A stretch of 29,184 nt of DNA, taken from the NCBI RefSeq assembly GCF_004010195.1, contig NC_057755.1, forward strand, positions 211,042 through 240,225, in the 5' to 3' direction. Positions 1-29,184 of this stretch are shown here, piece after piece. How positions within the stretch are numbered: position 1 is the stretch's first letter; the number at the start of each line of letters is the position of its first letter. The notes beneath the pieces were generated by a model that saw nothing but the letters and a program-made list of their open reading frames with translations, ran no database searches and was not told the origin of the DNA. This DNA comes from Chiloscyllium plagiosum. Lineage: Eukaryota. The translations under genes and the position numbers were made by a program.

Positions 1-240
1 CTGCAAGAGGTCATTCATGTCTGCAACAAATGAACAAACTATCTACCTGTTCTAATCCTCCTTTCCAGCACCTGGTGCACAGCGTTGAGATTTTCTATAT
101 ATCAGGTGCAGGTCCAAGTTCCCTTTAAATGACTTAAGGTTAGTCACCTCAAGTCATAATCAAAACAGTGAATTCCAGTCGCACCATCATCTTCTAAATG
201 TAACGCTGGGCCTCGTGTCCTCGATTATCCTCCCATCAAC
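1..240 (-). mobile_element. Old CR1-type LINE 3' fragment
   Basis: The reverse complement resembles a CR1 3' end (ggaattcactg...atttaaagggaacttggac...ggtgctggaaagaggattag) and is homologous to 26070-26096 plus 28155-28345. Confidence 0.55.
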
Positions 241-1288
241 ACCTAACACCATAATGTAAATATCCTCTTTTCTCTCTGTGCAATTCTGTCTGCACTACTC
301 AGCATTGAGCAGTAGTGTGCACTAAACCACAGCTGTGAGCGATACAGTTTCTCATGTAGTCCCACTGTGACCAATCTGGCAGGAGGTGAAAGAATTTGTC
401 TTGCGTTGGTCGTGGTACAGAGTAAGAGAAGAATAACATTATGGGGTAATATGGAATTGCATATTTGTGGATATCTGATCAGGGTCTGTGGCATATAATG
501 GACGTAAACAGATAGAGTTGGATTCTAATCTTTTTGAAATGTGGGGTTAGTTTTTCAGCTCCTCAGCAGTTCGTATAAGTGTTTAATAGCCTCACTTCTC
601 TTCTGACACCAGCTTTTAAATTACAGAACAAGCCAGATCCTCAATAGAAATACAACTTGATGGATCATAACCTTATTTATTTTGATTTAACAAAGTGGTC
701 TCTTGCTGAATCGCACACGATGCTGCAAATATTGCTTCACAAAAAAAGAAGATTATTCCAAAAGTAATAACGATAAAATGGAATAAACGAATCCATGAAG
801 GTATAACACAGATTCAAAGCTAATCAACATGCAGCCAATGTACTACTCTCATTAACTCAGAACAACGCATAAATAAAACAAAAGGACAGGACTTTTATAT
901 ATCATACAAAACATGACTCTCAGTGCCATTCCAAAGAAAACAACCTCATATAATAGTCACACCAGATTCCTTGTGTCTGCCAATTCTAAACTGGAACTGC
1001 TGTAAATTTCTTCCCAGAGATACCTCATCCCTGAGATTCAGTGTACTCAGCTTAAAACAATTTGTTCAGAGCTTTACCTTGTCCCAACACTTCTGTCTGG
1101 GTCTAATATAGCAATGTAATTTACTAAGACTCTCAGTTCCTACGCATGAGCATAAATTTATACATTCACTCAGTTCCAAGCTATTACTGGAACTAAAAGA
1201 AATGACAAGAATGATGGAAGGTAAACTACTGCTTTGTCAGTTGAGGGTTTCTTCTTTAATTGCAAATTCTAGAACTCTTCAACCAATC

Positions 1289-1971
1289 AATGAAGGTAAG
1301 CATGCAGGTACAGCTGGTAGTGAAGAAGACCAATAGCATGCTTGCCTTCATCACAAGAGGGACTGAGTATAGAAGCAAAGAGGTTCCTCTGCAGCTGTAC
1401 AGGACCCTGGTGAGACCACACCTGGAATGTTGTGTGCAGTTCTGGTCTCCAAATTTGAGGAAAGACATTCTGGCTATTGCAGAAGTGCAGCGTAGGTTCA
1501 CGAGGTCAATTCTTGGAATGGCGGGACTACCTTACGCTGAAAGACTGGAGCAACTGGGCTTGTAAACGCTTGAGTTTAGAAGACTGAGAGGGAATCTGAT
1601 TGAGACATATAAGATTATTCAAGGATTGGACAGTCTGGAGGAAGGAAACATGTTTCCGCTGATGGGTGAGCGCCGAACCAGGGGACACAACTTAAAAATA
1701 CGGGCAGACCATTTAGGACAGAGATGAGGAGAAACGTCTTCACCCAGAGAGTGGTGGCTGTGTGGAATGCTCTGCCACAGAGGGCAGTGGAGACCCAGTC
1801 TCTGGATTCATTTAAGAAAGAGTTGGATAGAGCTCTCAAGGACAGTGGAATCAAGGGTAATGGAGATAAGGCAGGAACAGGATACTGATTAAGGATTATC
1901 AGCCATGATCATAATGAATGGTGGTGCAGGCGTTAAGGGCAGAATGGCCTACTCCTGCACCTATCGTCTAT
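1289..1971 (+). mobile_element. 5'-truncated CR1 (HER1-like) LINE: RT C-terminus and 3' UTR, relatively young
   Basis: ORF 1260-1565 gives LYRTLVRPHLECCVQFWSPNLRKDILAIAEVQRRFTR, a typical CR1 ORF2 C-terminal sequence. It continues with RRLRGNLIETYKI and FFTQRVV-like motifs and the 3' tail gaatggcctactcctgcacc. AATC flanks both ends (1285-1288, 1972-1975), and the element is absent from the paralogous arm. Confidence 0.95.
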
Positions 1972-2532
1972 AATCTTTCAGTCTCCCTTTTAACCACGCT
2001 GAGTTGCAACCATCGAAGGTTCATTCGTACACAAAGCCATTCAGCCTGTAGCTAAACCTCAAACGCAATTTTTAAAACAATTTCTAAAACTCCAAGTGAT
2101 ATAATTTGGAGTTATCTTACTGATATAATTCCAAGTTAACTATTAACTTCAGATGTGCAGAGAAGCACACTGCTTCTTCACTCAATAGACCAGAGCCAAA
2201 CTCAAATTAAATAATTTTGCTCTCTCTGTATCAAAATACCAACGCTCATACCTTTCCAAAGTGATTCAGTTTCTTAATTCCAACGAAATTCTCTTCAGCC
2301 TCAGTTGGAAATGTAGATTTCTGGAAGGTTCCCAGAAGAGATTAATTCCTGCGGAACTTGCGATGATGGGGATTCCACAGGATGTCTGTAACTTCAAACT
2401 AAATTACTGATCGTCTGTCACTGTGTGTGACCTTTGGGCAAAACTTGCCCATGTACCATTCTCAGTGGTCGAGTGACCCCGCAAAGAATCCTCAAACAGA
2501 TTCACACAAATTCAATGGTACAAGGCACCTAC

Positions 2533-2599
2533 CAGGAATTGTTACATTTGGAAGAGTCCTGTAAAATATTCTCTGCATATGACGAATTGAGAACGTCAT
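2533..2599 (-). CDS. Candidate first coding exon of a GPR139-like GPCR paralog (MTFSIRHMQRIFYRTLPNVTIP, phase-1 donor); exon 2 would lie left of the window; may be a pseudogene
   Basis: AAAATG start, 22 codons plus G, then a GTAGGT donor. It resembles the short N-terminal exon of shark GPR139-like genes (..IYY..IA..GIP|V-N-L). TATAAA starts 81 bp upstream of the ATG, and the same layout is conserved in the paralog at 23949-24015. Confidence 0.6.
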
Positions 2600-2674
2600 T
2601 TTCTGCCTGAATATCTTTGTGCAGGTAATCTCTCTGCACTAAATGCCCAGGTGATACAATCTCAAAGCCTTTCG

Positions 2675-2680
2675 TTTATA
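2675..2680 (-). promoter_or_regulatory. TATA box upstream of candidate GPR139-like exon 1
   Basis: GCAGGTATAAA on the minus strand, with the same sequence and the same spacing to the ATG as the paralog at 23868-23873. Confidence 0.55.
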
Positions 2681-2874
2681 CCTGCTGTCATTGCCGGGGG
2701 GACTGCTACATTATAATGTGGTTCAATTCATTTATTTAAGAATTTTAACGAACAGGTGAAAGTGGTGAGTTAACACCCAGTTGTGACAAAGTATTTTGAG
2801 AACTGCATTTTATTGAATCTTAGAAATCTCAATCGGTCAATAGCAAACATTGGAAAATGTATATTAAACAAAGT

Positions 2875-3010
2875 GAGATAATCCTTACAATATGGAAGCT
2901 GACCAATGGACCCATCGAGTCCACACCGACGCTGCAAAGAGTATTCCACGCAGACGCACCTGCTGGCCCAGTCAGGCAACAGGGCTAGTCACTGAGCGCC
3001 TGTGCCACTC
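2875..3010 (-). mobile_element. Internally deleted, degenerate HE1-like SINE
   Basis: The reverse complement starts gtggcacaggcgctcagtgactagc (tRNA-like head) and ends with a CR1-derived tail (gtcggtgtggactcgatgggtcc...cttccatattgtaaggatt). The paralog is at ~23548-23678. Confidence 0.6.
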
Positions 3011-3157
3011 CACATACTATTGCCACCCCAACACCATCTATCCAACCTTGAACTTAAATTTTATTTCAGCGTCATCCTTCCCTTGCCTTTGACCATTTGG
3101 AAATTAAATTCCGATTGATGAGTGTATCTCTGAGAAATGTTCTCCTCAACACTGGGA

Positions 3158-3393
3158 TGCTGGAAAAGCGCAGCAGGTCAGGCAGCATCCAAGGAGAGAA
3201 GGAGAATCGACATTTCGGGCATAAGTCCTTCTTCAGGAATGCCTGCTTGGCACACCCTCCTCATTCCTGAAGAAGGCCTTATGCCAGAAACGTCGATTCT
3301 CCTTCTCCTTGGATGCTGCCTGACCTGTTGCGCTTTTCCAGCAACAGATTTTTAAGCTCTGATCTCCAGCATCTGCAGTCCTCACTTTCTCCT
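3158..3393 (+). mobile_element. Penelope-like element terminal-repeat (pLTR) remnant forming an inverted repeat
   Basis: 3158-3241 is the near reverse complement of 3262-3343, followed by gatctccagcatctgcagtcctcactttctcc. The 13-bp direct repeat AACACTGGGATGC flanks it (3148-3160, 3394-3406). The paralog (~23400) has a single site. Confidence 0.85.
3263..3298 (+). ncRNA. Degenerate minimal hammerhead-ribozyme motif in a Penelope pLTR
   Basis: attc-CTGAAGA-aggccttatgcca-GAAAC-GTC-gatt contains the CUGANGA and GAAA cores, a short stem II and a palindromic ACGT stem III. A second copy lies on the minus strand at 3205-3240. Stem II has mismatches. Confidence 0.55.
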
Positions 3394-4042
3394 AACACTG
3401 GGATGCGGCTTACGTAATTATCAGTGGCTGCTCTATGAAGGAATGATAGTTGGTGATTGGAGGTGCCACATTGTAGGTTTTAATAAATCCAACATCACAG
3501 TAAAATACAGCTTCTGAATCAAAAATACCTTTTTCCCAATCAAGGTAATAATTGAAGCAAGTAAAGTAACTCATTAAAAAATACCCGACAAGTTATACAA
3601 GCTCCAGTCAATACAGGTCCTCCTACCAGGATACGAGTCTCCTTTACATGTTTCAGAGCTGACACAGAGACAAACACGCGATCTATGCAGCAGTACATGG
3701 GGATGAGCTATTCCCGATTCCCTGCAGTGAACTGCACATGTATGGAGAAGAAACCCAAAGCATCTGATTGATGATTAGATGGAACAGTTTCAAGCGAGAT
3801 GATACAGTAAGTTCAGGGAGGGATTTTCATACACAAGGATGCATAAGTGACAAATTCTGGGAATAACATCTGGAAGGGCAATGCTGTCAATGAGGCCTAT
3901 AGTGATGGGGAATGGGACTTGGTGCGAGGAATGATAAAGGTCAGAAATCAGACAGCAGAAATAAATATGGTATGTTCATGTTGTCAGACTGATATTAGTG
4001 AGTGCCACAAGGATCATTTCTCCATGCACATCCATTTACAAT

Positions 4043-4172
4043 CTCGTGATGAAGGGCTTTTGCCCGAAGACTCCATTTTCCTGCTGTTCGGATGTTGTCT
4101 GACCTGCTGTGTCTTTCCAACACCACTCTAATCTTGACTCTAATCTCCAGCATCTGCAGTACCCACTTCTGC
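4043..4172 (+). mobile_element. Penelope pLTR fragment
   Basis: gatgaagggcttttgcccgaag...ggatgttgtctgacctgctgtgtctttccaacaccactctaatcttgactctaatctccagcatctgcagtacccacttctgcc, the same family as 3262-3393. Not present in the paralogous arm. Confidence 0.8.
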
Positions 4173-4197
4173 CCAATTATACTCTCCACCAAAAACA

Positions 4198-4365
4198 TAG
4201 ATGATGGGATCATGTGTGACGTTGCTGATAGCACAATGTTAGGTGGGACAGTAAAACACAAGGAGTACATAGGAACATTGGAAAGGTCAGGGGCAGGTTC
4301 ACTGTGAATGATCACAAAATACTCCATGCAATATAATGTCGAGAAATGTGAGGCACTGTTCATTA
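4198..4365 (+). mobile_element. Old CR1 RT fragment
   Basis: Translates to VADSTMLGGTV (cf. FADDTKLGG) ... MQYNVEKCE. Copies lie on the minus strand at ~22570-22735 and ~27630-27795. Confidence 0.7.
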
Positions 4366-4764
4366 ATCTCAGCCTTGCAATGATTTTAGTCCATTCAATA
4401 AAGTTTTAGATGTAAATCCTAGTCCTAAATCAAAAGACGACAAGACGCCTTTCTGCCCATTTAGTGCCAGGGGTTTCCATCATTCTCTTGAAAGTTTTAC
4501 TCATCCCAGACCCTTCTAACTTTGAGGAATTCAACCTTGGGTTTGTGTCATTTCACTTCCTCAGCATTGAACCCTTGCTGTCCAGCTATCATACTGGTCA
4601 ATCGATGCTGCACCGAATGGGCATGGACTCTCAACGTCCCAGTGTATTTCTTATTGTTCCCTATTTATAAAGTCAGTTTGGAGTATTGTTAAAATCAAAT
4701 CGCAGCAGTGAAGAGAGGTAAAATGAATGACTGATGCTTTCAGAACCATCCGTGCTGAATTGAC

Positions 4765-4945
4765 AGAGTCCGGGATGGTTTCTTCTCTAAAAGGTGGCTC
4801 GGGGTAAAAACGTCACAGAACAACTTCAGCAAGTCTTGGGAATTGTGGTTTTCTAGAGTGGCACAGCAGCAGGAGCGGGATTGTGTGTAAAGTAAAGAGT
4901 CCGTGGTCCTGGTCCAGACTGGCACCGACAATGTCTGGGAGGGAA
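4765..4945 (+). mobile_element. Decayed CR1 ORF1 (SGNH esterase-like) fragment
   Basis: With frameshifts it reads ESGMVSSLKGG/VKNVTEQLQQVLG...KESVVLVQTGTDNV. The paralog reads ECRVVYCL/NVTEQLQVILG...EEPMVRVHIYTDNI, matching CR1 ORF1 SRMVCCLPGARV.DV...EQPEVVVHIGTNDI. Confidence 0.65.
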
Positions 4946-5778
4946 ATCACTCTTTAGAGGCGGGCATCCTTTGTTTCTGAATGCATCGCCTTTGAGAACA
5001 GCCTCTCATTCATTCAGACATTCCGCATCTCAATATCCCTGAAATCCATCCTTTTATTTCAGACAGGTTCCCAGAAGTGATCAGCTTCACAGATCCAATC
5101 AGGGAACTGATATCTAATGAGGTTTAGCTGGCTGACTTCATGAAAATAATGACAGAAACAGCGATGAATTGCCATCAGTAAAAAGTAGTAAATCGGGCAA
5201 GAAATTCAAAAGTTGTTTTCTCCTGTTAGTCTGAGTAAACACCGTGCCGATGAACATGTGGCTGGGAGCATTGATTTCAGTAAGAAGGGCTTTGGACGTA
5301 TCGATGGTCAATGAGGTTTCTGGGTTTGGTGCAATCTGAATACATTGGAAACGTGGGTTTTGCTTTAATTGGATGGGGATTGCTACTCTTCTGGGGAAAC
5401 ACAACCGCCATGATGGAATATATATGCAATCTTATAATAGAGTGATGGGAACCTGGAATAATGTTCAGTTAGCAGGGAATGAAGCTGGCCACTTGAAGTA
5501 GTAAATCTGTAAGTGAAGGAGGAAAGCAACAAAAATACATTCTTGTCCATGAAGATGTTGTGCTGCAGAATCCTAATCTTCAGGATCAACCCCTTCCTCA
5601 TGCCTCTCAGATTCAGGACAGAGCTCTTTCTGAAGCATTACTTTCTCATTTTAGGGATATCCACAATAGTGTATCCGTTATGTTATACAGTTACTGTTGA
5701 AATCTCTCCTTTCTTTATTATTTATGATGATGCTTTCGCTATTTGGACAGAAATAATACATAAAAGAGTAACTCACTT

Positions 5779-6532
5779 CGAGGGACAAGATGTGCATGCA
5801 TTTGGAAAGGCAAAAACTGATTAGGGATTCTCAACATGGCTTTATGCGTGGTATATAATGTTTCACAAACTTGATTGCGTATTTTGAAGTTGTCACAAAG
5901 AGGATTGAGGAGGGTAGGATGGCAGACGTGATCTATATGGATTTCAGTAAAACGTTTGACAATGAACCTCAAGGGAGACTGATTAGCAAGGTTAGGTTAC
6001 ATGGAATACGGGGAAAACTAGTAAGTAGTAGACAGATTGGGTTGGTGGAGGGTTGTTTTTCAGACTTGAGGCCTGTGACCAGTGGAGTGCCACAAGGATA
6101 GGGGCTGGGTTCACTAGTTTTCAACATTTATATAAATGATTTGGATGTGAGTATGAGAGGTATAGTTAGTAAGTTTGCAGATGACGTCAAAATACGTGAT
6201 GTAGTCGACGGTGAAGACGATTACTCCAGATTACAACGGGATCTTGATCAGATGGGCCAATGGTTTGAGAAGTGGTAGATGAAGTTTAAATTAGATAAAG
6301 GCGAGGTGCTACATTTTGGAAAAGCAAATCTTCGCTGGACATACACACTTATTGTAAGGTCCTAGGGAGTGTTGATGAAAAAAAAGACTTTGAAATACTG
6401 GTTCATAGCTCTTGGAAAGTGGGTCTCAGGTAGATAGGATAGTGAAGAAGGCGTTTTGTATGCTTTCCCTTATTGGTTAGAGTACTGAGTACTGGAGTTG
6501 GGAGGACATGTTGCAGCTGTACAGGACAATTT
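5779..6532 (+). mobile_element. CR1 LINE internal reverse-transcriptase fragment lacking the 3' end
   Basis: Motifs LIRDSQHGF, FEVVTKRIEEGRMADVIYMDFSKTFD, VTSGVPQG, SKFADD and LQRDLDQMGQW, with stops and frameshifts. Confidence 0.95.
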
Positions 6533-6534
6533 GT

Positions 6535-6760
6535 ACAGTCTGAGAGAGACTCAAAATGGGGCTTCGCATTTCTACAAACTGTGGAACCCCTTTTGAGCTC
6601 GTGGATGGTTTCTGGGATCAGCACTTTCACATTCAGATTATACGTTCCCTTGCTGACCAGCAGGAGGCAATGGTCAGAGAAGAACACTAGTTTGACATTG
6701 TTGAATTTGACCGAAACCAATCCCAGACCCTCGAGTCTCACTTCACAGGTGTAACACACG
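6535..6760 (-). mobile_element. Tx1-like LINE ORF2 fragment (end of endonuclease domain)
   Basis: ORF 6403-6759 contains VKLVFFSDHCLLL...KGTYNLNVKVLIPETIHELKR...KPHFES. Paralog of 19650-19870. Confidence 0.85.
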
Positions 6761-7339
6761 AGCCCTTGTGAACTTCCCTCGTAAGTTTCCTCGTGATATT
6801 ATTAGTTTTAATATGGCGGCGGTGACAGGCTCCTGCTCCCATTTGATTCTGATTACCATTTCAGTCACATCAATCTTTCATCTTTGCTGTTTCATCTTCA
6901 ACTTGGTCTTCTGTTCCTTGTGCCTGTGACGGTGAAGGAAGATGGCATCAGTGTTGTCGATAGCAGCACTGTTGTGAACCTGGATCAGGTATTCTGATGT
7001 CGGTAGTGGTGACAGCGTGGTATGCCCATGTATGCAATCCCATTATTTTGATCGATTACATTGAACCGGTGTCAATGAGACAGTGGAACTGAGGTATTAA
7101 ACTGGGAATCTTGCAGCATTCACCGTCAAATTCAATCAAGTCAGACAGATGTGCAAGCCTTCACCTTGATTGAACATTGAATGGGTTGTTGATGAGATAT
7201 TGCCACAAAGCTTTAAATACCTAACACTATTTCCTGTAATATCCTTCCTGGGATAAAAAACTAAAGTTAAATCTGCTGCCAAGCTACTGCGTTCGGAAAT
7301 GACCTGGACAACTAATTAAAAGTAGGTTAAGAGTCACAT

Positions 7340-7440
7340 AAAATTTTCTGATCTCAAGTGAACCATTTGGATCATAACCTCATGTCGTGTGACTTCAGAC
7401 TTTTCCCACCCCAGTTCAACACTGGCATCCGCACATCAAG
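7340..7440 (+). mobile_element. Short shark interspersed repeat fragment (probably Penelope-related)
   Basis: ttggatcataacctcatgtcgtgtgacttcagacttttcccaccccagttcaacactggcatccgcacatca; inverted paralog at ~18970-19080. Confidence 0.5.
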
Positions 7441-7746
7441 GGTAAACAAGCCACATAAGTCAGAGAGATCCTACACACTCTCCAGAGAACATCATGACAA
7501 AGAAGCATGTGCCTTGGTGGTAGGAAGAAAGCCCCAACTCCAGTTCTGTGAGCTGTAATTGGAAATTTTAAACAAGTGCGTGGGCAAAGACGTTTGAGAC
7601 TAGCCGGTTACAGGGGACAGCAGAGGAAAAACCTGATTTTTTTAAAGGTTGGATTTTTTATATATTGCTTTTCAAAGATAATTAACAACTTCACATTATT
7701 AGTGTAAAACGAGTGCCACTAAATAAGCACGGAGATCTGTCAATAC

Positions 7747-8473
7747 TCGTATGAAGGTGTAGGTGCGTACTTTACTTTTTAGAGAGACTGTACCTTTAAG
7801 CAACACTGAACAATGACATTGACTTAGAGTGGCACAGGGTGTGCTGAGAGAAATCAACTTACAATATTTGACAGTGAAACCAATAGTTCAGTTGAGTTGC
7901 GATGGTACACAATAAATTCAAATTTAGCCATTTAGTTTAAATGATGTCCCAAAATACCAAAATTAAATCAAATTTGAATTTAATGTTTTGATGACATCAA
8001 ACAAATGATGTTTTGGGGTACAAAGCAGGACATTTTGAACAGTTAGGGAGAAAACAGAAAAGAACAGCCCCAAGCACCAACAGACTCTCAACAAAATTAC
8101 TCTTTGAAAGGTACATATCTATTAGAAATTTGTGCAGCAGAACATCAAAGCAGACCTAGACAAATCTGCAAAGAAAGTTCGACATCCGAAGATGTCAACG
8201 GCAATTGAAAGCGATTTGAGATAAATTTACGAGGGAAGTTATTGGACCAGTAACGTGCAGTTAGATGTAAAAGGTAGATTTAAGAGAATGGAGTTCTAAA
8301 TAGCGGTTTGAATGTTCTTTTTTGGACGTAAATAATAGAATTATTAACTTTACTTTAAATAGTGAAATATAGGATAAGCCTTTGCCTTTCAAACTTTAAC
8401 AGATTACGGTGGGAGGTGAGATATTCTGTACGCCGGGTTTAAATCAGCAGAAGGGTTTACCCAAGTTGCAACA
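7747..8473 (+). mobile_element. Degenerate solo LTR
   Basis: Starts tcgtatgaag (cf. TGTTATG) and ends gttgcaaca. Similar to 11312-12058 along its length (ctgtacctttaag; aaatagtgaaat...; aactttaacagattacg; tttaaatcagcagaagggtttacc). Flanks are ATAC/ATCC, an imperfect 4-bp TSD. Confidence 0.7.
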
Positions 8474-8597
8474 ATCCGAAAATGAAATGTACATTGGATA
8501 TTGTCAATGATTACAGAGAAATAACCAACACATTGATTCGGAATTTTGCCTCAGTAATTTCGAGGAAAATAACATCAACAAGAACAGTTTCTCTTAT

Positions 8598-8735
8598 GCC
8601 CTTTCGGGAAGGAAATTGCCATCCTTTTCTGGTCTGACCTAATGTGATTTTAAACCGACAGTAATGCGGTTTACTCTTGACTGCTGCCTGGGATGGGCCA
8701 ATAATGATGTCCGAGCCAATACTGCTCTCATCCCA
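8598..8735 (+). mobile_element. Degenerate SINE/LINE 3' fragment
   Basis: ccctttcgggaaggaaattgccatccttttctggtctgacctaatgtga...gggatgggccaataa...catccca resembles a common shark repeat 3' end. Confidence 0.5.
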
Positions 8736-9259
8736 TTTCAGGCCGCAGACGTTATGCTGCTTTTATATAGAACCTGGTTTGTTCGCCCTTGGGAATGAGA
8801 GAGCAATCGGTGAGATGGAGAGGGCTGTTCCCAGGACTCAGCGCAACATGGAGGCAACTAATTGCGGGGCTCGACGTGGTGAGAGCCACCGCTCAATGTT
8901 AATGTCTGGAAATTTGAAAAGAAGGTAATGCCCAACACCACCTCTCACACAAATTGATTAAAGCTGGAAATAGTCTCGATTTCCCTGTATTTATTCCACT
9001 CCATTTACCTGCATTTCAGCGTTTATGTTTCCCTGTATGCAAACTTCCCTGTTAATCGTATCTCTGATACCTTGTGTGTAACCCATATTCTTCCCAAATG
9101 TTTCATTCTCAGCTGATTGCTGCGTCATTCACCTTATCTCTCTCTCTGTATTTAAGCCTCTCCCTTTTACCCTGTATTTCAGCTATTCTTGTAATTCAAT
9201 CCACCCTATTCATTGCCCAGTATTTAATTCTGTTATTATTAGTCTGTAATTAGTAAATC

Positions 9260-9607
9260 ACAGTTTCCATACATTGTGGAAACTGGCCCTTCGCCCCAAC
9301 AAGTTCACACCAACCCTACAAAGAGTATCACTTTCAACCCCATTTCACTACCCTATTAACTACGTTTACCCCCGACTAATGTGCCTAGCCTACACATTCC
9401 TGAAAACTATGCGTAAATTAGCATGGCAAAATCACTGAACCTGCATACCTTTAAGTTATGGAAGGAAGCTGGAGCACCCATGGCGATCCCAAGTAAACAC
9501 AACGAGAACGTGCAAACTCCACACAGACAGTCGCCCAAGGCTGGAATCGAATCCGGATTTCTCGCACTGTTTGGCAGCAGTGGAAAACAGTGAACTACCG
9601 TCCATGC
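9260..9607 (-). mobile_element. HE1-type tRNA-derived SINE, near full length and degenerate
   Basis: The reverse complement has a tRNA-like head (ggtagttcactg...ccggattcgattccagccttgggcgactgtctgtgtggagtttgcacgttctc) and a CR1-like tail (ggtgtgaacttgttggggcgaagggccagtttccacaatgta). Confidence 0.9.
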
Positions 9608-10114
9608 TACCTTACTACTCTTTAATTAATTCTGTCTTTATCTGCATTCAATATTCTCTATTCTCCTGCATTTAACCATTTCTCTCTTACTCTGTTTTCA
9701 TTCCTCTTCCTGTTACTCTCTATTAAATCGTCTCAAATCTATGCTCCAATGTACCCGTTACATTTAATCCTAATCCATCTCAATCATTAACCACTTCTGT
9801 GTTCAGTTTTCTCCCCATTGCTCTCTAATTAGCTCTCTCGCTATTACTTTATATATATTCCTTTCCACTGTCCTCTTGCCCTTTAGTTAATCCGCTTCCT
9901 GTTCTCCTGTATTCAAAAATCACCGAATTAATTGATTGTTTGATTAACCTTTTTATTTAGTTATTTTCGTAATCTATTTATTCTTTTTCCATTTCTCTGC
10001 ATTAACTCCACTCCCTTTCCACTATACTTAACACTCGCGCTGCTCCACTCCAACAGGCTCCCTGTTATTCTGTGTTTACTTGTCTCCAGATTAAACTGTT
10101 GAACTCTCTCCCCT

Positions 10115-10507
10115 TCCACGTAAGCTGGCTTGCCATTCCAACACACATTCCTGCTCCCATGCTCACAGGTCTGTCTTTGGCATGCTACAATGTTTCAGTG
10201 AAGCTCAACGCAAACTGGAGGTACAGCATCTCATCTCCCCACTAGGCACATTACGGCCTGCCGATCTCAACAGTGAGTTCAACAACTTCAGATGATTATC
10301 CCATCTCGACCCCTCTGCTTTCATTCTGCTCCGTAATTTTATTTATTTATTTATTTATCTTTTTTATATATTTTCACTGTTCTGTACATCTTATTTCTTG
10401 ATTGTCTCTCTTTCTCTCGCTCCCCACTCTCTGATCAACTTTTCCCTCTCTTCTTCCCCCTTTTCTACTCTTCTCCACTGTTTTCCATTTTGTCTCTGCT
10501 TTACTCA

Positions 10508-10561
<54 letters not shown>

Positions 10562-10960
10562 CCCCCCCCCAGCGNNNNNNNNNNNNNNNNNNNNNNNNNN
10601 NNNNNNNNNNNNNNNNNNNNNNNNNNNNNNNNNNNNNNNNNNNNNNNNNNNNNNNNNNNNNNNNNNNNNNNNNNNNNNNNNNNNNNNNNNNNNNNNNNNN
10701 NNNNNNNNNNNNNNNNNNNNNNNNNNNNNNNNNNNNNNNNNNNNNNNNNNNNNNNNNNNNNNNNNNNNNNNNNNNNNNNNNNNNNNNNNNNNNNNNNNNN
10801 NNNNNNNNNNNNNNNNNNNNNNNNNNNNNNTTTTTTAGCTTTGACAAAGGGTCAGTTAGACTCGAAACGACAGCTCTTTTCTCCCCTTACAGATTATGCC
10901 AGACCTGCTGACATTTTCCAGCATTTTCTCTTTCCGTTTCAGATTCCAAAATCGGCTGTA
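10115..10960 (+). mobile_element. Penelope-like element 3' end (GIY-YIG ORF terminus plus pLTR) spanning a gap
   Basis: 10130-10295 translates ACHSNTHSCSHAHRSVFGMLQCFSEAQRKLEVQHLISPLGTLRPADLNSEFNNFR*, matching the Penelope C-terminal RKLEEQHLIFRLGTLQP.GLN.EF. After the gap come the pLTR motifs ctcgaaacg...gccagacctgctgacattttccagcatt. Confidence 0.85.
10575..10830. other. Assembly gap (N run) preceded by poly-C
   Basis: 256 Ns; a poly-C run lies at ~10509-10570. Confidence 1.
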
Positions 10961-18493: not shown

Positions 18494-18677
18494 TTGACCA
18501 AATTAACATTTGTTGCATACCATGGCACCTGAACCGATTTATTTGTTTCACAGTCAAATGTTACATTTTAAATTATTAGCACAACCAGTGCCACTCTAAG
18601 TCCATGCCAGCTTCCAGTGTCTCTTAAAGTTACAGACTCCCTTAAAGGAACAGTATGCACCTACACCTTCATATCAG
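18494..18677 (-). mobile_element. 5' part of the solo LTR paralogous to 7747-8473, running into the gap
   Basis: The reverse complement tgatatgaaggtgtaggtgcatac...gacttagagtggcac matches 7747-7930. Confidence 0.75.
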
Positions 18678-19649
18678 AATGGACTGATCTACTTGCTTGG
18701 TGGACCTTATTTTACACTAAGAGTGAGACGTGGTTTTATATATATATATATATATACAACCTGTAAAAATCAGTCTTTTGCTCCACTATCCCCAGCAACA
18801 TGTCAGGCTGAAATGTCTATGCCCACACCCTCATTTAAAATTCCCAATTACAACTCATCGAACTGGACTTGTGGCTTTTCTTTCTACTCCCAAGCTTCCT
18901 GCTTCTTTGTCCTGATATTATCTGGAGATTTTGTGAGATCTGTCTGACTTAAGTGGCTTATTTATCTTTTTTGTGGAGGTGTTGGCGTTGAACCTGGATG
19001 GCTAAGTCCGAAGTCACACAACACCAGGTTGTCGTCCAATTGGTTTACTTGAAATCAGAAACGTTTGTTTGATTTCTGACCCTCTTCTTGTCAGTTATCC
19101 GGGTAATTTCAGATTGCAGTGGCATAGCAGCTGTTTGACATAACAATGTAATTAGCTTAAGTTAAATTTAGTTTCTATTGCAGGAAGAATATAATGTAAA
19201 ACATATTGGATACTTAAAATATTGTAGCAATGTCTCATCAACAACCTATTCCATGTTCAATCAAGTTGAAGGTTTGTGCATCTGTCTGGCTTGATTGAAT
19301 TTGCAGTGCTTCCTTGGTTTATATCTCAGTTCCACTGTTTCATTAAGACCAGTTCAATGTAACCAATCAAGAAAATTTTGGATAATGAACTAGGGTCCAC
19401 CATAGTGACTACCGATACCGAGATTCCTGTTCCAGGTCCGCAGTGCTGCTGCTGCAGATACTATTGATGCCATATTCCTCCAAGTTCGCCACCATAGGAG
19501 CAGAAGTTGAAGATGAAGATGATTAGCCAAGGCGATAGAAGGATGTGCCCGGCCTGGCGATTCGAATCAAATGGACTCAGGAGCTTGCCAATGCAGCCTT
19601 CTTACAACAAAAATTCAGGAAGAATTTCACGAGCGAGGTTCACCAGGAC

Positions 19650-20945
19650 TGGAGTGATTCACACGTAAAGTGAGACTAGATAGTCTGGGATTGGTTTCGG
19701 ACAAATTCAACAATGCCAAGCTGGTGTTCTTCTCTGACCACTGCGCTACAATGGAACGTGGAAACTGAATGTGAAACTGCTGATCCCAGAAAATATGGAG
19801 GAGCTCAACAAGGTTACCACCGGCTGGAAAAACGTGAAGCCCCACTTTGAGTCACCCCGAGACTTATGGGAAACCGTCCAGCAGAACATCTGGAGGACAT
19901 TTCTGTCGAAAGTCTTCTGAAGGTGAGAGAGAAACGGGGAGAATGTAAAAACTCCAGAAACGTTTGCAGAATCTTCATCTCGTGTAGACAATAGAGGTTG
20001 ATGTCATGGAAGGTGTTCAGGAAGTGAACAGCCAGGAAGCCTCACCCTTTATCTCAGACGCCTCCAAGATGCTTTCCAAGTCCAGGGTTCACACTGTGGA
20101 GCAGGAGGAGGCGTGGTCACGTTTGGTCTTTGAATGTTTGCACAGGGAGAGCTATGTGCTCAGAGCCTGAAGGGAGAACATGGATCTGTAGCGTTATCTC
20201 AGCCTGACATCCTGAGGATCAGCAAATCCTTTTATGTCAGACTGCATGACACGAAGCCCACAGAGAGTGCAACCTCCCGGTCATTGCTCCCTGTCATGTA
20301 GGTCTTAGACGAAAGCACATGGGAGAGGTTGCTGCAACCGTTATTTCTGGATGTGCTGACCAAGACCCTCGAGTCCTTAAAAACGAGTAAGACACCAGGA
20401 AGTGACAGCTTACCAACTTAGTTGTTTAATCTGTGTCAGACTTGCTTGGCCAGGGCTTCCTTGAAGTGGACAACACTCGGCTTCTGACAGGTCGTCTGTG
20501 TGAACCCATGAGGATAGGTGTCATCCCCCTCACCTACAATCAGAAGGGGGAGAGGACGACTGACGACCCACATCATTGCTCAATGAAAATTAAAATTTCT
20601 TGAATAAGGTCATCACCAACCGGCTCAGTTCTGCTTTGGGATCAGTGATTCACCCCGAACAGATCTGATCTGTACAGGCAGCCTCACAATTCTTAAGGAT
20701 AGAATCGCCTCCATGCAGGACAGGGGAGTCGGAAGCCCGCCTCATCAGCCTGCACCAGGAGGTCCTTGACAGGATCTCTCACACATCCATGAAGGATATT
20801 CTCTCAAAGCTAGGCTTTGTGGAGGGATTCCACCAATGAATCCGACTGCTGTCCACCAGCATTATTCGTGCAGCCTCAATCAATGGGAAACAGAAAGCTT
20901 CTTTATTAATCGATAGTCAGGCAGGGCTGCTCCCATCGCCTTTCC
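19650..20945 (+). mobile_element. Tx1-like LINE ORF2 fragment (endonuclease end to mid RT), disrupted
   Basis: Motifs KLVFFSDHC, GTWKLNVKLLIPENMEEL, SRVHTVEQEE, DILRISKSFY, KTPGSDSLP, LGSVIHPEQ, LISLHQE, DRISHTSMKDILSKLGFVEG and VRQGC, across frameshifts. Confidence 0.92.
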
Positions 20946-21036
20946 TGTAACATTGTTGACCTGGAGGCAGCTGAATCAGTGCTGCAAACCATTCAGGCAT
21001 TGCTTCCTTTTTAGCAGATGTCAATATACCGAGAAC

Positions 21037-23093
21037 CTCTTCCCTAAGGTTCCTCAATCCATTACTTCATTTTTTTAGATTCAGCATCCGAATTTTAGAG
21101 TCCAATTCTTCATTCTCCACGTTAATATACAATTCAAGCATTTTAAGATCAATCTTCCCTCCGAAATAATATTGTAAATTCATACTACTGCATTGTGTCT
21201 GTACGTTTTGGAGAAAGTAAATTAACTTGTTGCATGCTTATATCTGTTCTCTCATATCAATTCAAACCTGTGAGATGGAATAGGTTAGTCCTTAAAATGT
21301 GTTATTTCTGTCCACGTGAAGCAAGCATAATCACAAATGATAAAAAAATGTGGGACTTTGACAGGATGTGTATGACTTATTGGATACAATCTTGGGATAT
21401 CCTAAAAATGAGAAAGTAAGACATCAGAAAGAACTCTGTCCCTGAATTTGTGAGTCATGTGAGGGGAGGGTTTGACCTGCAGATTGGGATTCTGAAAGAG
21501 AACGTCTTCATCGATCCAGAACGTCTTTTTGTGGCCGTTCTCTTTCACTCACAGATTTACTACTTCAAGTGGCCATTTCCCTGCTAACTGTGCTTTTTTT
21601 TTCAAGTTCCCAAAACTCTGACAAGATTGAACAAATATTTCACAATGGCGGGAGTATGTTTCCCCAAAAGAGAATCAATCGCCATCCAATTAATTCAAAA
21701 CCCATGTTTCCAATGTATTCAGATCACACCAGGCTGAGAAACCTCGCCAAACATCGAGACATCTAAAACCCTTCTTCCTGGAACCAATGCTTACAGCGAC
21801 ATGTTCATGTACCTAATGTGTACTCAGCGTAATGGGGGATCAGCTTTTCAATTTCTTGCCCGATTTTCTGCATTTTACTGATGAAGATTCATAGCTGTGT
21901 CTCCCTGTTATTGCCCTGGGTTTAGCCAGCTGGGCATCATAGGGTATGAGTTCACAAATTATGGCTGCGAACCTGATCCAATCAGGTAGCCCTGAATGAA
22001 ATTTAAAAGAAAGATGAATTTCAGGGATATTGAGATGCCAAATAGCTGACACAAAGAAAGACTCCTGTGAAAAGCGATGCATTTGCAAATAGCGAATGAT
22101 TAATTACATGATGCTGTCCTCTGGAGAGTAATTTCGATCCCAGATATTGTCGGTGTAAATATGCACTCGGACCATGGGTTCTTCACTTTCCACACTTTCC
22201 CGCTCCGGCTGCTGTCCCACCCCAGAAAACCCCACGCCCCAATATTACCTGAAGTTGTTCTGTCACGTTCTCGACCCGAGGCACTGTTGAGACAATACAC
22301 CACCCTGCATTCTGCTTAGCCAGGACTGATGGTTCTGGTAGATTAGCTCAGTCAGCCAGAGTTCACGAATGAGGGACTGAAATGATGCACACACATGTTT
22401 GAATTCTTCAAATTTAGGAGGTTCTGAGATGAGTACAGTTTTCAAGAGAATAATGGAAACTGCTGGCAATGAATGGACGGAAAGGCTGTCTGATATCTCT
22501 TAATTTAAGACTAGGATAAGCATCTAATAGTTTATAGATGGCTTGAAGTCTGTCTAAGACTGAAATGAATGAAGAACACCTCGTAGTTCTATGCATTATA
22601 TTGCTCAGACTAAATTATGCTTATTCACTCAAAGAACCTGTCCTTCCCTTTCTTAGCGTTCCTGTGTCCTCCTTGTCTTTAACTGTTCCACCTAACATTG
22701 TGCTGTCAACAGACGTCACCCCTGCTCCTATCATCACAGTCATTGCTAGAGATTATAAATGGCTGTTTGTGGAGTAATCATCCTTGTGGGACTCACTAAT
22801 ACCAGCCTGACAACATGAAAATGGCACATTTATTCCTTCTCTCTGTCCTTTATCATTCTTCACAATAAGTCACATTTCCCCATCACTACAGATGCCATGG
22901 ACAACAGTGACACACTCAAACATTTCCAGAATTTGACATTTCTGCACCCTTATGTGCACAAATCCCTCCCTGGCCTCACTCCACCATCTCACTTGGAGCA
23001 GTTGCATCTCATCATCAGTCAGATGTTTCAGGTTTCTTCTCTGTACATGTGCAGCACACTGCAGGGAATATTAAATAATTCATCCCCATGCGC
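21037..23093 (+). repeat. Source copy of a ~2.06 kb near-identical direct duplication
   Basis: Matches 26099-28154 (offset 5061-5062) with only scattered substitutions; the duplicated ORFs in the track are nearly identical. Confidence 0.97.
22120..22320 (-). mobile_element. Decayed CR1 ORF1 esterase-like fragment (also at ~27180-27380)
   Basis: ECRVVYCLNSA/NVTEQLQVILG...SEEPMVRVHIYTDNIWDR. Confidence 0.65.
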
Positions 23094-23547
23094 TGCTGTT
23101 CAGATTGTCTGTGCCTCAGAGTCAGGTCTGCAACATGTCCAGGACACTCTTATCCTGGTAGGATAATCTGTACTGATTGGAGCTTATGTAACCGTAAAGC
23201 GTATTTTTCACTCAGTTTGTTTACGTTATTCAATTATTGTCTTAATTGGAGAAGTTATATTCGATTCAGAAACTGTACCCATGCAAAGTGAGGAATTCTG
23301 TTGGGATGTTGGATTTACTAAAAAATACAATGTGTTGTTTCCATTCACCAACTATCATCACTTCACAGAATAGCCGCTAATAACCAGGGAAACTAGAGCT
23401 CAGTGTTGAGGAGCACATTTCTTTGAGAGACACTCAACAACTAGAATAAATTTTCTAAATGGTCAAAGGCAAGGAAATGATGACATTGAAATAAAATAAG
23501 ATCGCAAAGAGTCATAGATAGTGTTGGAGTATCAATGCTGGTATCGA

Positions 23548-23678
23548 GGGTGGCATGGTGGTTCAGTGATTATCCCTGCGGCCCGCACGTGGATTTGGGT
23601 GCGATACTCTTTTCAGGGTCGTTTTGGTTTCGATGGGCCCATTGACCCTCTTCCACATTGTATGCATTCTATGATTTT
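23548..23678 (+). mobile_element. Internally deleted HE1-like SINE
   Basis: Head gggtggcatggtggttcagtgattatccctgc and tail gatactcttttcagggtc...gatgggcc...cttccacattgtatgcattctatgatt. Confidence 0.65.
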
Positions 23679-23867
23679 ATTCGACATGCATTTTCCAAAG
23701 TTTGCTATTGACCGATTGAGATTTGTATCATCCAATAATACTCAATTCTAAAAATCCTCCAACACAAGTGGGAGTTAACTCACCGCTGTGACTTTCTTGT
23801 TCAAATTCTTAAATAAATGAATCGAACCACATTGCAATGCAAGAATCCTCCAGGCGATGCCAGCAGG

Positions 23868-23873
23868 TATAAA
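23868..23873 (+). promoter_or_regulatory. TATA box upstream of candidate GPR139-like exon 1
   Basis: GCAGGTATAAA, with TATAAA starting 81 bp before the ATG at 23949; conserved in the left arm. Confidence 0.55.
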
Positions 23874-23948
23874 TGACAGGCTTTGTGATTGCATCACCTC
23901 GGTATTGAGTGCAGATAGATTGCCTGCGCAAAGAGATTCAGGCAGAAA

Positions 23949-24015
23949 ATGACGTTTTCATTTTATCATGTGTGGACGATATTTTACACGATTCTTCCAT
24001 TTGTAACAATTCGTG
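23949..24015 (+). CDS. Candidate first coding exon of a GPR139-like GPCR paralog (MTFSFYHVWTIFYTILPFVTIR, phase-1 donor); exon 2 not seen in the window
   Basis: AAAATG start, 22 codons plus G, then a GTAAGA donor. The hydrophobic stretch fits the start of TM1, and length and signals match the paralog at 2533-2599. Confidence 0.6.
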
Positions 24016-24785
24016 GTAAGAGCCTGCAGCATTGAGTTTGTGTGAATCTGCGTGAGAATTCTCTGTGGGTTCACTCTACCACGAACAATGGTACATGAGC
24101 ATGTTTTGCCTGTAAATCAGACAGTGGCAGACGATCAAAAATTTAATATCAGGTTACAGACACCCCGTGGAATCCCCATCACCGCAGATTCCACAGAAAC
24201 TGCTTGGGGGATTATTCACCTCTTCTGGGAACCTTCCAGAAATCTCCATTTCAATCGGGACGACGGGGAATTTCGGTGGAATTAACAAAAGGAGTTTCTT
24301 TGTTAAAATATAAGCGGTGGTATTTTTATGTAGAGTCTGCAATAATATTTGATTTTCGTTTGGTTCTGCTTTTTGAGTGAAAAAGCAGTCGGCTTCACTG
24401 TGCATTTGAAGCAAATCGTCAACGTGAGTGCATTTCTGTTATCACAGCAATTCGTTTTAAAAGTTGCGTTTGAGATTTCTCCACGGGCTGAATGGCTTTG
24501 TCTACGAGTGAACCTTTGTATACTTTTCATGCTTGAAATCCAGCATGGCATTAATGGAGTCTGAATGATTTGTTGGCTAGTTCCGGTATTTGTGATTAAG
24601 GAAGAAACCCATAAATGAGAAATCTTTACTTTCACTTCAATCTTTTTTTTTTGTAATTTCTTTTCAATCCTGTAAGAACCTGGAAATGAGTGGATGCATA
24701 GCTCTGTGCTCATGTGAATGAGATGAGAGTTTTATTAAAATACATTGTGTTGGAATGAAAGTGTTGTATTGGTCCCAGACAGAGG

Positions 24786-25310
24786 TGTTGTGACGAGACA
24801 TAAGCTCTGAAGGTAATGTTTAAATCCACGTACATTGACACTCATATATGTGGTAGCTCCAGGAAGAAACCAAATGCAGTTCCAGTTTAGAAGTCGTAGT
24901 CACAAGTCATTTAACCAAATGATAGAAACAAGGATTTTAATATGACTATTATATGAGGGTTGCTTTGTTTTGAACTGCATTAGGAGTCTGTTTTGTTGAA
25001 TATATAAAAGTCGTGTCCTTTTGTTTCATTGATGCATTGTTTTGAGGTTAATAAGAATTATACATTTACTTCGTATTCGTTCTGTTTGAATCAACGTTAT
25101 AAGTAAGTAATTTGATTTATTCTAAGTTATTGTCATTTCTTTTGCAATAAACGTCTGTTTTGGTGTGAAAAAGAATGTTTTCAGCATTGTGTGTTTGTGA
25201 TTCAGCAAGAGATCAGTTTGCTAATTAATGTAAATAAGGTTATCACTCATCAATCTGGATTTCTGTCTCGGGTCTGGCTTGTTCTGTAATTAATCAGCTG
25301 ACATCAGAAA
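24786..25310 (+). mobile_element. Possible old solo LTR (inverted paralog at ~600-1092)
   Basis: Starts TGTTGTGAC, has tatataaaag and aataaa internally, and has an LTR-like 3' end (ggtctggcttgttctgtaattaatcagctgacatca). The termini are degraded. Confidence 0.4.
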
Positions 25311-25632
25311 AGAACTGAGGCGATTAAACGCTTCGACTGACTCCTGAGGAACAGACAAACTGAGCCACACTTCAAACAAATTGGGCCGAACTACATCCAT
25401 AAAAGAATGTTTTCAGCATTGTGTGTTTGTGATTCAGCAAGAGATCAGTTTGCTAATTAATGTAAATAAGGTTATCACTCATCAATCTGGATTTCTGTCT
25501 CGGGTCTGGCTTGTTCTGTAATTAATCAGCTGACATCAGAAAAGAACTGAGGCGATTAAACGCTTCGACTGACTCCTGAGGAACAGACAAACTGAGCCAC
25601 ACTTCAAACAAATTGGGCCGAACTACATCCAT
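25169..25632. repeat. Perfect 232-bp tandem duplication (25169-25400, 25401-25632)
   Basis: Both units run aaaagaatgttttcagc...aactacatccat, with no differences seen. Confidence 0.97.
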
Positions 25633-25794
25633 GCAGATTAATTACATATCGCAGATCCTGATATCAGACATCCGCAATGAGTTGTGATTCCATATTACCC
25701 ATCCCAAAGTTACTACTCTTTTACTCTACAGCACAGCCAATACAATACAAATTCCCTCACTCCCTGCCAAACCTGTAACACTGAAATGATACGA

Positions 25795-26096
25795 GACACA
25801 GGGTGGCTCACATACATGCAGTTTTGGTCATCACCGAGCAGTGAGGACAGAATTGATCTGTGGAGAGTGCAACAGAGATTTACCAGAATGGTGTTAGTGT
25901 GGGGAAATTACTGCAGTATTGAGCAAAGATGCATAGGGTCGTGTCATCTTCCCTAAACAGGGGCGCATGAGATTTGACGTGACTGGGATTACAAATTAAT
26001 CAGGGTGTTGATTGAATACATGACTCCCTTAACGGAGAACCAATTAACAAGGAGACAGAGAGTGAGAAACATTGGTGGGAGGATTATTAAGGACAT
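25795..26096 (+). mobile_element. Old CR1 RT C-terminal fragment, continued at 28155-28345
   Basis: YMQFWSSP...DRIDLWRVQQRFTRMV in ORF 25684-25956. Confidence 0.75.
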
Positions 26097-26098
26097 AA

Positions 26099-28154
26099 CT
26101 CTTCCCTAAGGTTCCTCAATCCATTATTTCATTATTTAGATTCAGCATCCGAATTTTAGAGTCCAATTCTTCATTCTCCACGTTAATATACAATTCAAGC
26201 ATTTTAAGATCAATCTTCCCTCTGTAATAATATTGTAAATTCATACTACTGCATTGTGTCTGTACGTTTTGGAGAAAGTAAATTAACTTGTTGCATGCTT
26301 ATATCTGTTCTCTCATATCAATTCAAACCTGTGAGATGGAATAGGTTAGTCCTTAAAATGTGTTATTTCTGTCCACGTGAAGCAAGCATAATCACAAATG
26401 ATAAAAAAATGTGGGACTTTGACAGGATGTGTATGACTTATTGGATACAATCTTGGGATATCCTAAAAATGAGCAAGTAAGACATCAGAAAGAACTCTGT
26501 CCCTGAATTTGTGAGTCATGTGAGGGGAGGGTTTGACCTGTAGATTGGGATTCTGAAAGAGAACGTCTTCATCGATCCAGAACGTCTTTTTGTGGCCTTT
26601 CTCTTTCACTCACAGATTTACTACGTCAAGTGGCCATTTCCCTGCTAACTGTGCTTTTTTTTTCAAGTTCCCAAAACTCCGACAAGATTGAAGAAATATT
26701 TCACAATGGCGGGAGTATGTTTCCCCAAAAGAGAATCCATCGCCATCCAATTAAATCAAAACCCATGTTTCCAATGTATTCAGATCACACCAGGCCGAGA
26801 AACCTCGCCAAACATCGAGACATCTAAAACCCTTCTTCCTGGAACTAATGCTTACAGCCACATGTTCATGTACCTAATGTGTACTCAGCGTAATGGGGGA
26901 TCAGCTTTTCAATTTCTTGCTCGATTTTCTGCATTTTACTGATGAAGATTCATAGCTGTGTCTCCCTGTTATTGCCCTGGGATTAGCCAGCTGGGCATCA
27001 TAGGGTATGAGTTCCCAAATTATGGCTGCGAACCTGAGCCAATCAGGTAGCCCTGAATGAAATTTAAAAGAAAGATGAATTTCAGGGATAATGAGATGCC
27101 AAATAGCTGACACAAAGAAAGACTCCTGTGAAAAGCGATGCATTTGCAAATAGCGAATGATTAATTACATGATGCTGTCCTCTGGAAAGTAATTTCGATC
27201 CCAGATATTGTCGGTGTAAATATGCACTCGGACCATGGGTTCTTCACTTCCCACACTTTCCCGCTCCTGCTGCTGTCCCACCCCAGAAAACCCCACGCCC
27301 CAATATTACCTGAAGTTGTTCTGTCACGTTCTCGACCCGAGGCACTGTTGAGACAATACACCACCCTGCATTCTGCTTAGTCAGGACTGATGGTTCTGGT
27401 AGATTCGCTCAGTCAGCAAGAGTTCACTAATGAGGGACTGAAATGATGCACACACATGTTTGAATTCTTCAAATTTAGGAGGTTCTGAGATGAGTACAGT
27501 TTTCAAGAGAATAATGGAAACTGCTGGCAATGAATGGACGGAAAGGCTGTCTGATATCTCTTAATTTAAGACTAGGATAAGCATCTAATAGTTTATAGAT
27601 GGATTGAAGTCTGTCTAAGACTGAAATGAATGAAGAACACCTCGTAGTTCTATGCATTATATTGCTCAGACTAATTTATGCTTATTCACTCAAAAAACCT
27701 GTCCTTTCCTTTCTCAGCGTTCCTGTGTCCTCCTTGTCTTTAACTGTTCCACCTAACATTGTGCTATCAACAGACGTCACACATGCTCCTATCATCACAG
27801 TCATTGCTAGAGATTATAAATGGCTGTTTGTGGAGTAATCATCCTTATGGGACTCACTAATACCAGCCTGACAACATGAAAATGGCACATTTATTCCTTC
27901 TCTCTGTCCTTTATCATTCTTCACAATAAGTCACATTTCCCCATCACTACAGACGTCATGGACAACAGTGACACACTCAAAGATTTCCAGAATTTGACAT
28001 TTCTGCACCCTTATGTGCACAAATCCCTCCCTGGCCTCACTCCACCATCTCACTTGGAGCAGTTGCATCTCATCATCAGTCAGATGTTTCAGGTTTCTTC
28101 TCTGTACATGTGCAGCACACTGCAGGGAATATTAAATAATTCATCCCCATGCGC
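26099..28154 (+). repeat. Inserted second copy of 21037-23093
   Basis: Near-identical to 21037-23093. Its flanks (…ggattattaaggacat | catttcattcggaagatga…) are contiguous in the left-arm paralog (~185-240). Confidence 0.95.
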
Positions 28155-29184
28155 CATTTCATTCGGAAGATGACTGTGCAACTGCCAGTTTTGATAGTGG
28201 CTTGAGTGACTAACCTTAACTCATATAAGGGGAACTTAGATCTGCACATGAAGTGCAGAAAACCTCAGTGCTGTCGACCAGATGCTGAAAAATGGGATCT
28301 GACCAGGTTGATTTAGTTGATGCAGATATGAATGACTTCTTTCAGTGCCACAAATGTCGTGCATTCCTCTTGTTTTGCAGAAAGACTGAGGAGAGTTGAA
28401 GTGTATTCACTTGGCAGGTTAAATGGCTTGTTTCTGTGTTGTCCATTTCCAACACTGGAAATTTGGAGAGCGTAAAATTGAATACAATAGTGCTACCTTC
28501 CAGTTTTTCACTGAAAACGTTTTTGTAGCTTCAAAATTTGTACAATGCATAAAGCAATTTTACATGGGGAGGAACAATGTTAACTAAGGTTAGAGCATAA
28601 TAATTTGTCAATTCATTAGGGTGACATTGCTTACTTTGTTTAGTTATTTTATTACAATGTAAAGATTTTAGAAAAGTAGCATTTTGAAATCGTGTATTAC
28701 CTATGGACTGTAGAGTATTCGGATTATTAATTTAAATGCTAATTGTCCATGACATGATCATAAAACAATAGAGAGTCAGAGAGACCTGTTTTTTTTATCA
28801 TGTCATATTTTATTATGCAATAGATTGGAGCTGCCACATTCCGTAGTTACAGTAGTGAATTCACTGTTTTCTTCTGTATTGTGTATTGCATTCATAGAAT
28901 ATCAACAGGCATATTCCAAAACTCTTTGAGTCAGATAATGCAGAGAATGCAAAAAAAAAGTCACATCTTCCGACTTGGACTTTGCATTATTTGCTGACTA
29001 AATGTCAGCGACATTAGAGCATTGCTAAACTTGACAAGGAATTGTTCTCTTTCCAAAACACACTATGAGGGATTCAGTGAGTTATCATATCCTCAGTTTA
29101 TCGGCACAGAGAGGACTCTGATCGCGATTTGCACCTTTAATAATGACATGAACATTTCTCATCTCTGTTAGCATTATTCGTCAA

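Follow-up and report, generated by a model that had tools for sequence, protein, structure and literature searches.

The window analyzed here is a stretch of 29,184 nucleotides from Chiloscyllium plagiosum (NCBI RefSeq assembly GCF_004010195.1, contig NC_057755.1, positions 211,042 to 240,225 of the forward strand). It features two long arms that are related to each other on opposite strands, a TATA box and a candidate 67-nt first exon in each arm, and, between the arms, a broken second exon of a shark and ray GPCR (G-protein-coupled receptor) family automatically named after GPR139. The piece of the assembly that carries the right arm is joined to the rest by a gap of fixed size, and the relative orientation of the arms hangs on this join.

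Two paralogous arms and the join between them

The arms were defined by comparing the window against itself on both strands and were examined by arm-to-arm alignment, blastn, and a block-shuffle control. The left arm (1–7930, minus strand) carries the upstream region, the TATA box, the first exon, and the start of the intron of a GPR139-like unit and continues beyond the left end of the window. It matches the opposite strand from 28345 down to 18495 in eight ordered, colinear blocks. The right arm (18495–28345, plus strand) is its paralogue as assembled: position 7930 aligns to 18495, and the homology reaches the edge of the gap, which sits in a many-copy repeat. The two arms are 76.2% identical (4,330 of 5,685 aligned sites), corresponding to a Kimura two-parameter distance of 0.29, with values between 0.26 and 0.37 for the individual blocks. 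Between the arms, blastn finds 11 pieces, all on the minus strand, that cover 5,949 of the 7,930 left-arm bases; the block-shuffled right arm yields none in 20 of 20 shuffles. An arm age calculated with the pedigree rate of PMC10587355 came to approximately 2e8 generations, too many to be credible, and was dropped.

The homology is colinear over more than 1 kb, includes nonrepeat sequence, and has junctions common to both arms, as in a segmental duplication. The arms are real paralogues of common descent since they share the same internal deletion of a short interspersed element (SINE) and since insertions confined to the left arm face empty sites in the right arm. The SINE-like element lies at 2881–3006 (minus strand) and at 23549–23677 (plus strand); compared with a fuller copy near 9240–9620, it lacks approximately 200 internal nucleotides in both arms, with the head joined to the tail and the tail resuming at the same place. 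The left-only insertions occupy 1276–1975, 3146–3392, 4044–4172, and 5762–6536. A preliminary description of this DNA had proposed an inverted duplication of approximately 28 kb with colinear arms at 1–7930 and 18494–28345. Its reverse-complement colinearity stands, but the shared sequence amounts to approximately 8 kb per arm, with 7931–18493 as a spacer, and the right arm additionally holds extra copies of 2,057 and 232 nt.

The gap at 17994–18493 consists of exactly 500 N—a fixed-size scaffolding join that the preliminary description missed when it called the arms head-to-head. They do lie on opposite strands as assembled; the relation is printed across this gap, however, and the inversion is therefore a statement of the assembly. 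According to PMC8926247, the 3D-DNA pipeline for Hi-C data inserts fixed 500-N fillers between contigs that it has ordered and oriented. The gap is identical in size, although other scaffolders use fixed fillers as well. When contigs of three runs and reads of one RNA run are placed on 16600–25460, no piece among the best rows listed for each crosses the gap, and one record extends 91 letters into it. Of 24 pieces listed, 23 diverge from the window sequence by 1 to 5%, far above the diversity of 0.2% given for the epaulette shark in PMC10587355; hence, these pieces are paralogues or come from a related population or species. Their summed depth is not usable as copy number. Judged from priors, the head-to-head orientation is somewhat more likely than not to be real on the DNA.

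An exon-2 pseudogene and two candidate first exons

The element at 17266–17993 (minus strand) is, as judged by an HMMER scan, the family alignment, and contigs of other runs, an exon-2 pseudogene of the shark and ray GPR139-like 7tm_1 family. The full HMMER scan with 17993→17266 gives 59 matches among 1.84 billion representatives (best E 1.1e-19). The 10 top matches that were looked up are all 7tm_1 proteins of sharks or rays, and eight of them bear the name probable or putative GPR139; with the main frame, a word-based homologue search, Pfam, and PDB had returned nothing. The pseudogene aligns with shark and ray proteins named probable or putative G-protein coupled receptor 139, for example, XP_078092165.1 and XP_067894328.1, over family positions 79–325, that is, from transmembrane helix 3 (TM3) to the C-terminus. 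It is identical to the family member P0102 in 104 of 250 columns. The frame is broken by three frameshifts and three in-frame stops, and the exon is truncated at family position 79 by the 500-N gap, with the loss of its first 56 codons. The D-R-F motif of TM3—kept in 88, 88, and 86 of 89 family members at its three positions—is cut by a deletion, while loose ends of related contigs retain it. Each frameshift is crossed ungapped by a contig of another run, so the frameshifts are not errors of one assembly. The third, dead family member that the preliminary description placed between the arms is, thus, borne out, albeit as an exon-2 piece only and one cut by the gap. No other exon-2 piece of the family was found in the window, including 28346–29184.

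The family itself is large. Of 8,000 proteins scored with a profile built from 17 matches, 1,393 reach E ≤ 1e-20, in agreement with the claim that GPR139-like GPCRs occur as many paralogues in sharks. The 120 listed profile matches all carry shark or ray names, with more than 70 of the 120, counted by eye, from one species. The closer comparison covered approximately 180 of these at least 1,393 proteins. In 47 of 134 models with the V/A/I-N motif of TM1, exactly 22 residues precede the motif, as fits a 67-nt first exon; family-type exon ends occur in 87 of the 134, and in 47 of the 134, alien sequence is joined at the same point before the motif. Such joins would be expected if an intron lies there and gene finders miss the short first exon. 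The protein models, accordingly read, place the family's intron at this point, as far as we can infer.

The left candidate first exon (2533–2599, minus strand) and the right one (23949–24015, plus strand) both run 67 nt from an ATG through 22 codons to a phase-1 G|GT donor. In each arm, the sequence TATAAA (2675–2680, minus strand; 23868–23873, plus strand) lies 81 nt upstream of the ATG. The preliminary description of a TATA box and an outward-pointing 67-nt exon per arm, thus, holds on both strands, with TATAAA starting at 2680 (minus) and 23868 (plus) and the ATG at 2599 (minus) and 23949 (plus). No promoter- or exon-like stretch was found elsewhere in 8000–17993 or 24200–29184. A profile of family starts puts the two exons in the top two places among 56,462 six-frame windows. 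With an ATG and a GT required, the next candidate is approximately 20 bits lower, and none of 40 shuffles reaches the window exons. To P0177, 10 of 22 residues are identical.

The same profile also sets the two exons apart from the family. Their scores of 2.2 and −1.8 lie far below the 20 to 63 of family members. The left exon is atypical at P17, N18, and T20 and the right one at P17, T20, and R22; P17 and T20, present in both, occur in none of 47 members each, while A17 is found in 40 and G20 in 45 of the 47. Hence, both exons lack the A17 and G20 of the TM1 start. Between the exons, one silent difference stands against 13 replacement differences (P 0.16 if neutral; P 0.0015 at a ratio of replacement to silent change, dN/dS, of 0.3). 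Promoter and exon together are slightly more conserved than the flanks (270 of 334 sites, within the top 4% of windows of equal size). Approximately 2% of the RNA run, a poly-A single-cell one, yielded nine reads placed on 16600–25460, and the right exon received none of them. In sum, the claim that the 67-nt elements are GPR139-like gene starts finds weak support: they fit the first exon of the family weakly, by rank and by the filtered shuffles, with scores near zero and residues foreign to the members compared. The foreign P17 and T20 and the ratio of one silent to 13 replacement bases suggest that at least one of the two exons is probably dead; otherwise, they would come from an unsampled subfamily.

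Repeat fossils, insertions, and extra copies

An old repeat fossil common to the arms lies at 4741–5761 (plus strand), with copies at 21297–22337 and 26358–27398 in the self-comparison, and shows esterase-like motifs by eye. The preliminary description had labeled it CR1 ORF1 and listed a Tx1 element among the transposon fossils shared by the arms. The sharing is confirmed for the deleted SINE; the two labels agree with motifs in the translations, but the shared fossils have no match in Pfam or PDB. The sole repeat piece with a domain match is the left-only reverse-transcriptase fragment at 5762–6536 (plus strand; Pfam RVT_1, E 2.7e-14), which is absent from the right arm and, by its motifs, presumably CR1-like. 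The same presumption applies to the fragment at 1276–1975 (plus strand), the 3′ part of a long interspersed element that is likewise absent from the right arm in the arm comparison. The left-only insertion at 3146–3392 is made up of two oppositely oriented pieces of a single repeat, is flanked by a 13-nt target-site duplication, and faces an empty site in the right arm; it may resemble the ends of Penelope-type elements. Related pieces occur at 4044–4172, 10856–10980, 13490–13541, and 16098–16218. A comparison with Rfam gave no match.

The spacer and its left border contain an old direct repeat, 7744–8462 and 11306–12045, whose copies are approximately 62% identical and are each followed by a pyrimidine-rich tract. 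The start of the repeat also matches the gap edge of the right arm, and neither copy has a Pfam match in its three plus-strand frames. Also in the spacer, a gap of 256 N (10575–10830) adjoins a poly-C run, 12640–13325 is a degenerate minisatellite that repeats approximately every 36 nt, and 14600–15900 is a long stretch of AC-rich, low-complexity sequence that is strongly skewed between the strands.

The right arm features two copies of its own. The segment 21037–23093, 2,057 nt in length, recurs in direct orientation at 26099–28154 (plus strand) with 98% identity (39 substitutions and one 1-nt indel), as seen in the self-comparison and in contigs of other runs. The second copy is placed between two blocks that adjoin in the left arm, with approximately 8 nt lost at the site. 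Letters of both versions turn up in other runs, an observation that fits alleles as well as paralogues; the copy is either a recent local duplication or templated insertion or an assembly artifact, namely an assembled allele or paralogue. At 25169–25632 (plus strand), a 232-nt unit that is single in the left arm is exactly duplicated in tandem—a probable assembly artifact of the overlap type, according to self-comparison and arm alignment. In addition, the stretch 22951–23706 just upstream of the right promoter is skipped by one contig each of the runs X2 and X5, which mark a related copy that lacks 754 nt.

Reading of the locus and comparison with known receptors

The window probably belongs to a birth-and-death cluster of shark and ray GPR139-like class A GPCRs and holds an old duplicated gene-start unit with relic starts. 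A unit of at least 8 kb—approximately 5 kb of upstream DNA with old fossils, the TATA box, the 67-nt first exon, and the start of the intron—was duplicated long ago, as shown by the 76% identity, the shared deleted SINE, and the later arm-specific insertions. The first exons would then have diverged without purifying selection while the neighboring exon 2 decayed; this decay is visible in exon 2 and probable for at least one exon 1. By analogy with the growth of such clusters, the duplication most likely proceeded by unequal recombination among paralogues or repeats. Turnover of this kind, as the preliminary description proposed, is supported, as are the common descent of the arms, the family identity of the middle pseudogene, and a large paralogous family. 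The accompanying idea that the cluster grows by inverted segmental duplication is more than a single locus can show.

Several observations pull the other way from relic starts in a decaying cluster. ATG, donor, and TATA box are kept in both arms, and the segment from TATA to ATG is 86% identical between them (70 of 81; P 0.016 without correction for the seven regions compared). This conservation hints at lasting constraint, in which case either start, or both, could belong to a living member of an unsampled subfamily. Without the ATG and GT filter, the exon scores fall within the shuffle maxima of up to 2.9. Moreover, no exon 2 belonging to either arm lies within the window, and a weak search with two candidates, neither scoring, found no protein on record that starts with either exon. 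As for the pseudogene, one X1 contig carries an extra base near the second frameshift, and this lesion may not be fixed.

Within the favored reading, an arrangement with not quite an even chance, judged from priors, is that the piece to the right of the 500-N gap is misoriented. The array would then run head-to-tail on the minus strand, the exon at 23949–24015 would be the missing first exon of the 17993→17266 pseudogene, and the locus would hold two genes and no inversion. Such a flip is in keeping with a gap of exactly the 3D-DNA filler size (PMC8926247) that cuts exon 2 at position 79. No first exon lies in 8000–17993 on either strand, the pseudogene and the left exon are already head-to-tail, and both exons, the first and the second, give an impression of decay; the right homology, furthermore, ends at the gap in a many-copy repeat, a usual place for a contig to end. 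Against the flip, none of the listed reads or contigs points to it or crosses the gap, which may itself conceal several kilobases including a separate first exon. The 5′ part of exon 2 was not found in 28346–29184, though the contig may go on. Hi-C usually orients large scaffolds correctly and receptor clusters often mix orientations, which also counts against a flip. The opposite arrangement, put forward in the preliminary description, is a true inverted duplication that created a divergent pair of working GPR139-like genes with their second exons outside the window and a dead third between them. For it speak the 11 of 11 arm-to-arm pieces on the minus strand as assembled, the retention of ATG, TATA box, donor, and frame on both sides, and the slightly higher conservation of promoter and exon relative to the flanks. 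We consider it unlikely: the residues P17 and T20 are foreign to all 47 members, 45 of which have G20, the silent-to-replacement ratio rejects ordinary purifying selection (at dN/dS 0.3), the orientation depends on the join, and the weak search yielded no annotated protein with such starts.

Slighter still is the prospect that the 67-nt elements are chance ATG…GT stretches in a duplicated noncoding segment beside a GPCR pseudogene. Their scores, far under those of all family members and inside the unfiltered shuffle range, would allow for it, and the two exons, being copies, count as one observation. On the other hand, chance would have to supply the exact modal length and phase, a TATA box at equal distance, and the partial identity to P0177, at a level that no filtered shuffle attains and a few kilobases from a family pseudogene. 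That the arms resemble each other through independently inserted transposons is next to impossible, even though repeat fossils make up a large part of either arm. Over 7.9 kb, with promoter, exon, and intron included, the arms agree colinearly in order, spacing, and junctions, with the same SINE deletion and the empty right sites, so that the homology is not limited to separate insertions. A last conjecture concerns the family as a whole and is improbable, if hardly negligible: it would form an undescribed chemoreceptor repertoire with fast turnover, a remodeled ligand pocket, and from dozens up to hundreds of genes in each genome. The locus would then record its spread by the copying of promoter and first-exon modules, and the P17/T20 exons would mark a divergent subfamily whose two copies changed mostly at replacement sites through diversifying selection and not through decay.

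As a duplication, the locus represents ordinary turnover in a cluster, and its main lesson is one of caution: where an inverted duplication spans a gap of fixed size, a flip in scaffolding may lie behind it. The odorant receptors of sharks are regarded as few. Across sharks and rays, the lineage of the pseudogene has at least 1,393 distinct proteins on record, automatically named GPR139 without its identity or most of its pocket; if family members were sensory receptors, the picture of shark chemoreception would change. The window contributes a decayed example and the anatomy of promoter and first exon, and function lies outside its evidence. Taken together, the locus combines real paralogy, an ordinary mechanism, an uncertain inversion, and probably relic gene starts, and it adds little to the question of the family, which is the prize.

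L-Trp and L-Phe activate human GPR139 and its relative GPR142, both of them class A receptors. GPR139 is the best solved-structure match of the family (PDB 7vug; E 1.8e-11 for P0102) and, like the family as modeled here, has a two-exon gene (PMC7318219). P0102, however, is only approximately 25% identical to it by our own count, whereas the zebrafish orthologue reaches 70% according to the same paper, and orthologues keep 70% or more across bony vertebrates. Residues of the GPR139 pocket are F3.33, H5.43, W6.48, and N7.38 (PMC5430874). Among 89 family members, F3.33 is found in nine, H5.43 in four, and W6.48 in 88, with mostly R at 3.33 and mostly D at 5.43; the 7.38 column is poorly aligned, and W6.48 alone is clearly kept. 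By sequence, then, the family is related to GPR139 but not orthologous to it, and with the low identity and a mostly changed pocket, sensing of Trp or Phe is not to be assumed. The family also lacks the usual prolines of TM6 and TM7, which is unusual for class A receptors: the 6.50-like column is mostly V, I, or T, and N-T-x-x-Y replaces N-P-x-x-Y in 87 of 89 members.

Compared with the shark and ray proteins named GPR139, the candidate exons share the most frequent start, one of 22 residues. They differ in lacking A17 and G20, exon 2 of the window is broken, and the window holds no intact gene. No account of the shark and ray GPR139-like expansion was found in the openly available papers searched, supplements aside. 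The term GPR139 is absent from the main text of PMC11979771 and from that of the preprint bioRxiv 10.1101/2025.06.08.657570, whose supplementary tandem-cluster tables could list the family; the main text of the preprint does describe V2R clusters in rays. The locus differs from olfactory, trace amine-associated (TAAR), and vomeronasal type 2 (V2R) receptor clusters in its receptor lineage, and a chemosensory role like theirs would be conjecture. Those clusters evolve by birth and death, and the likeness to them lies in many paralogues, local segmental duplication, and pseudogenes beside gene starts.

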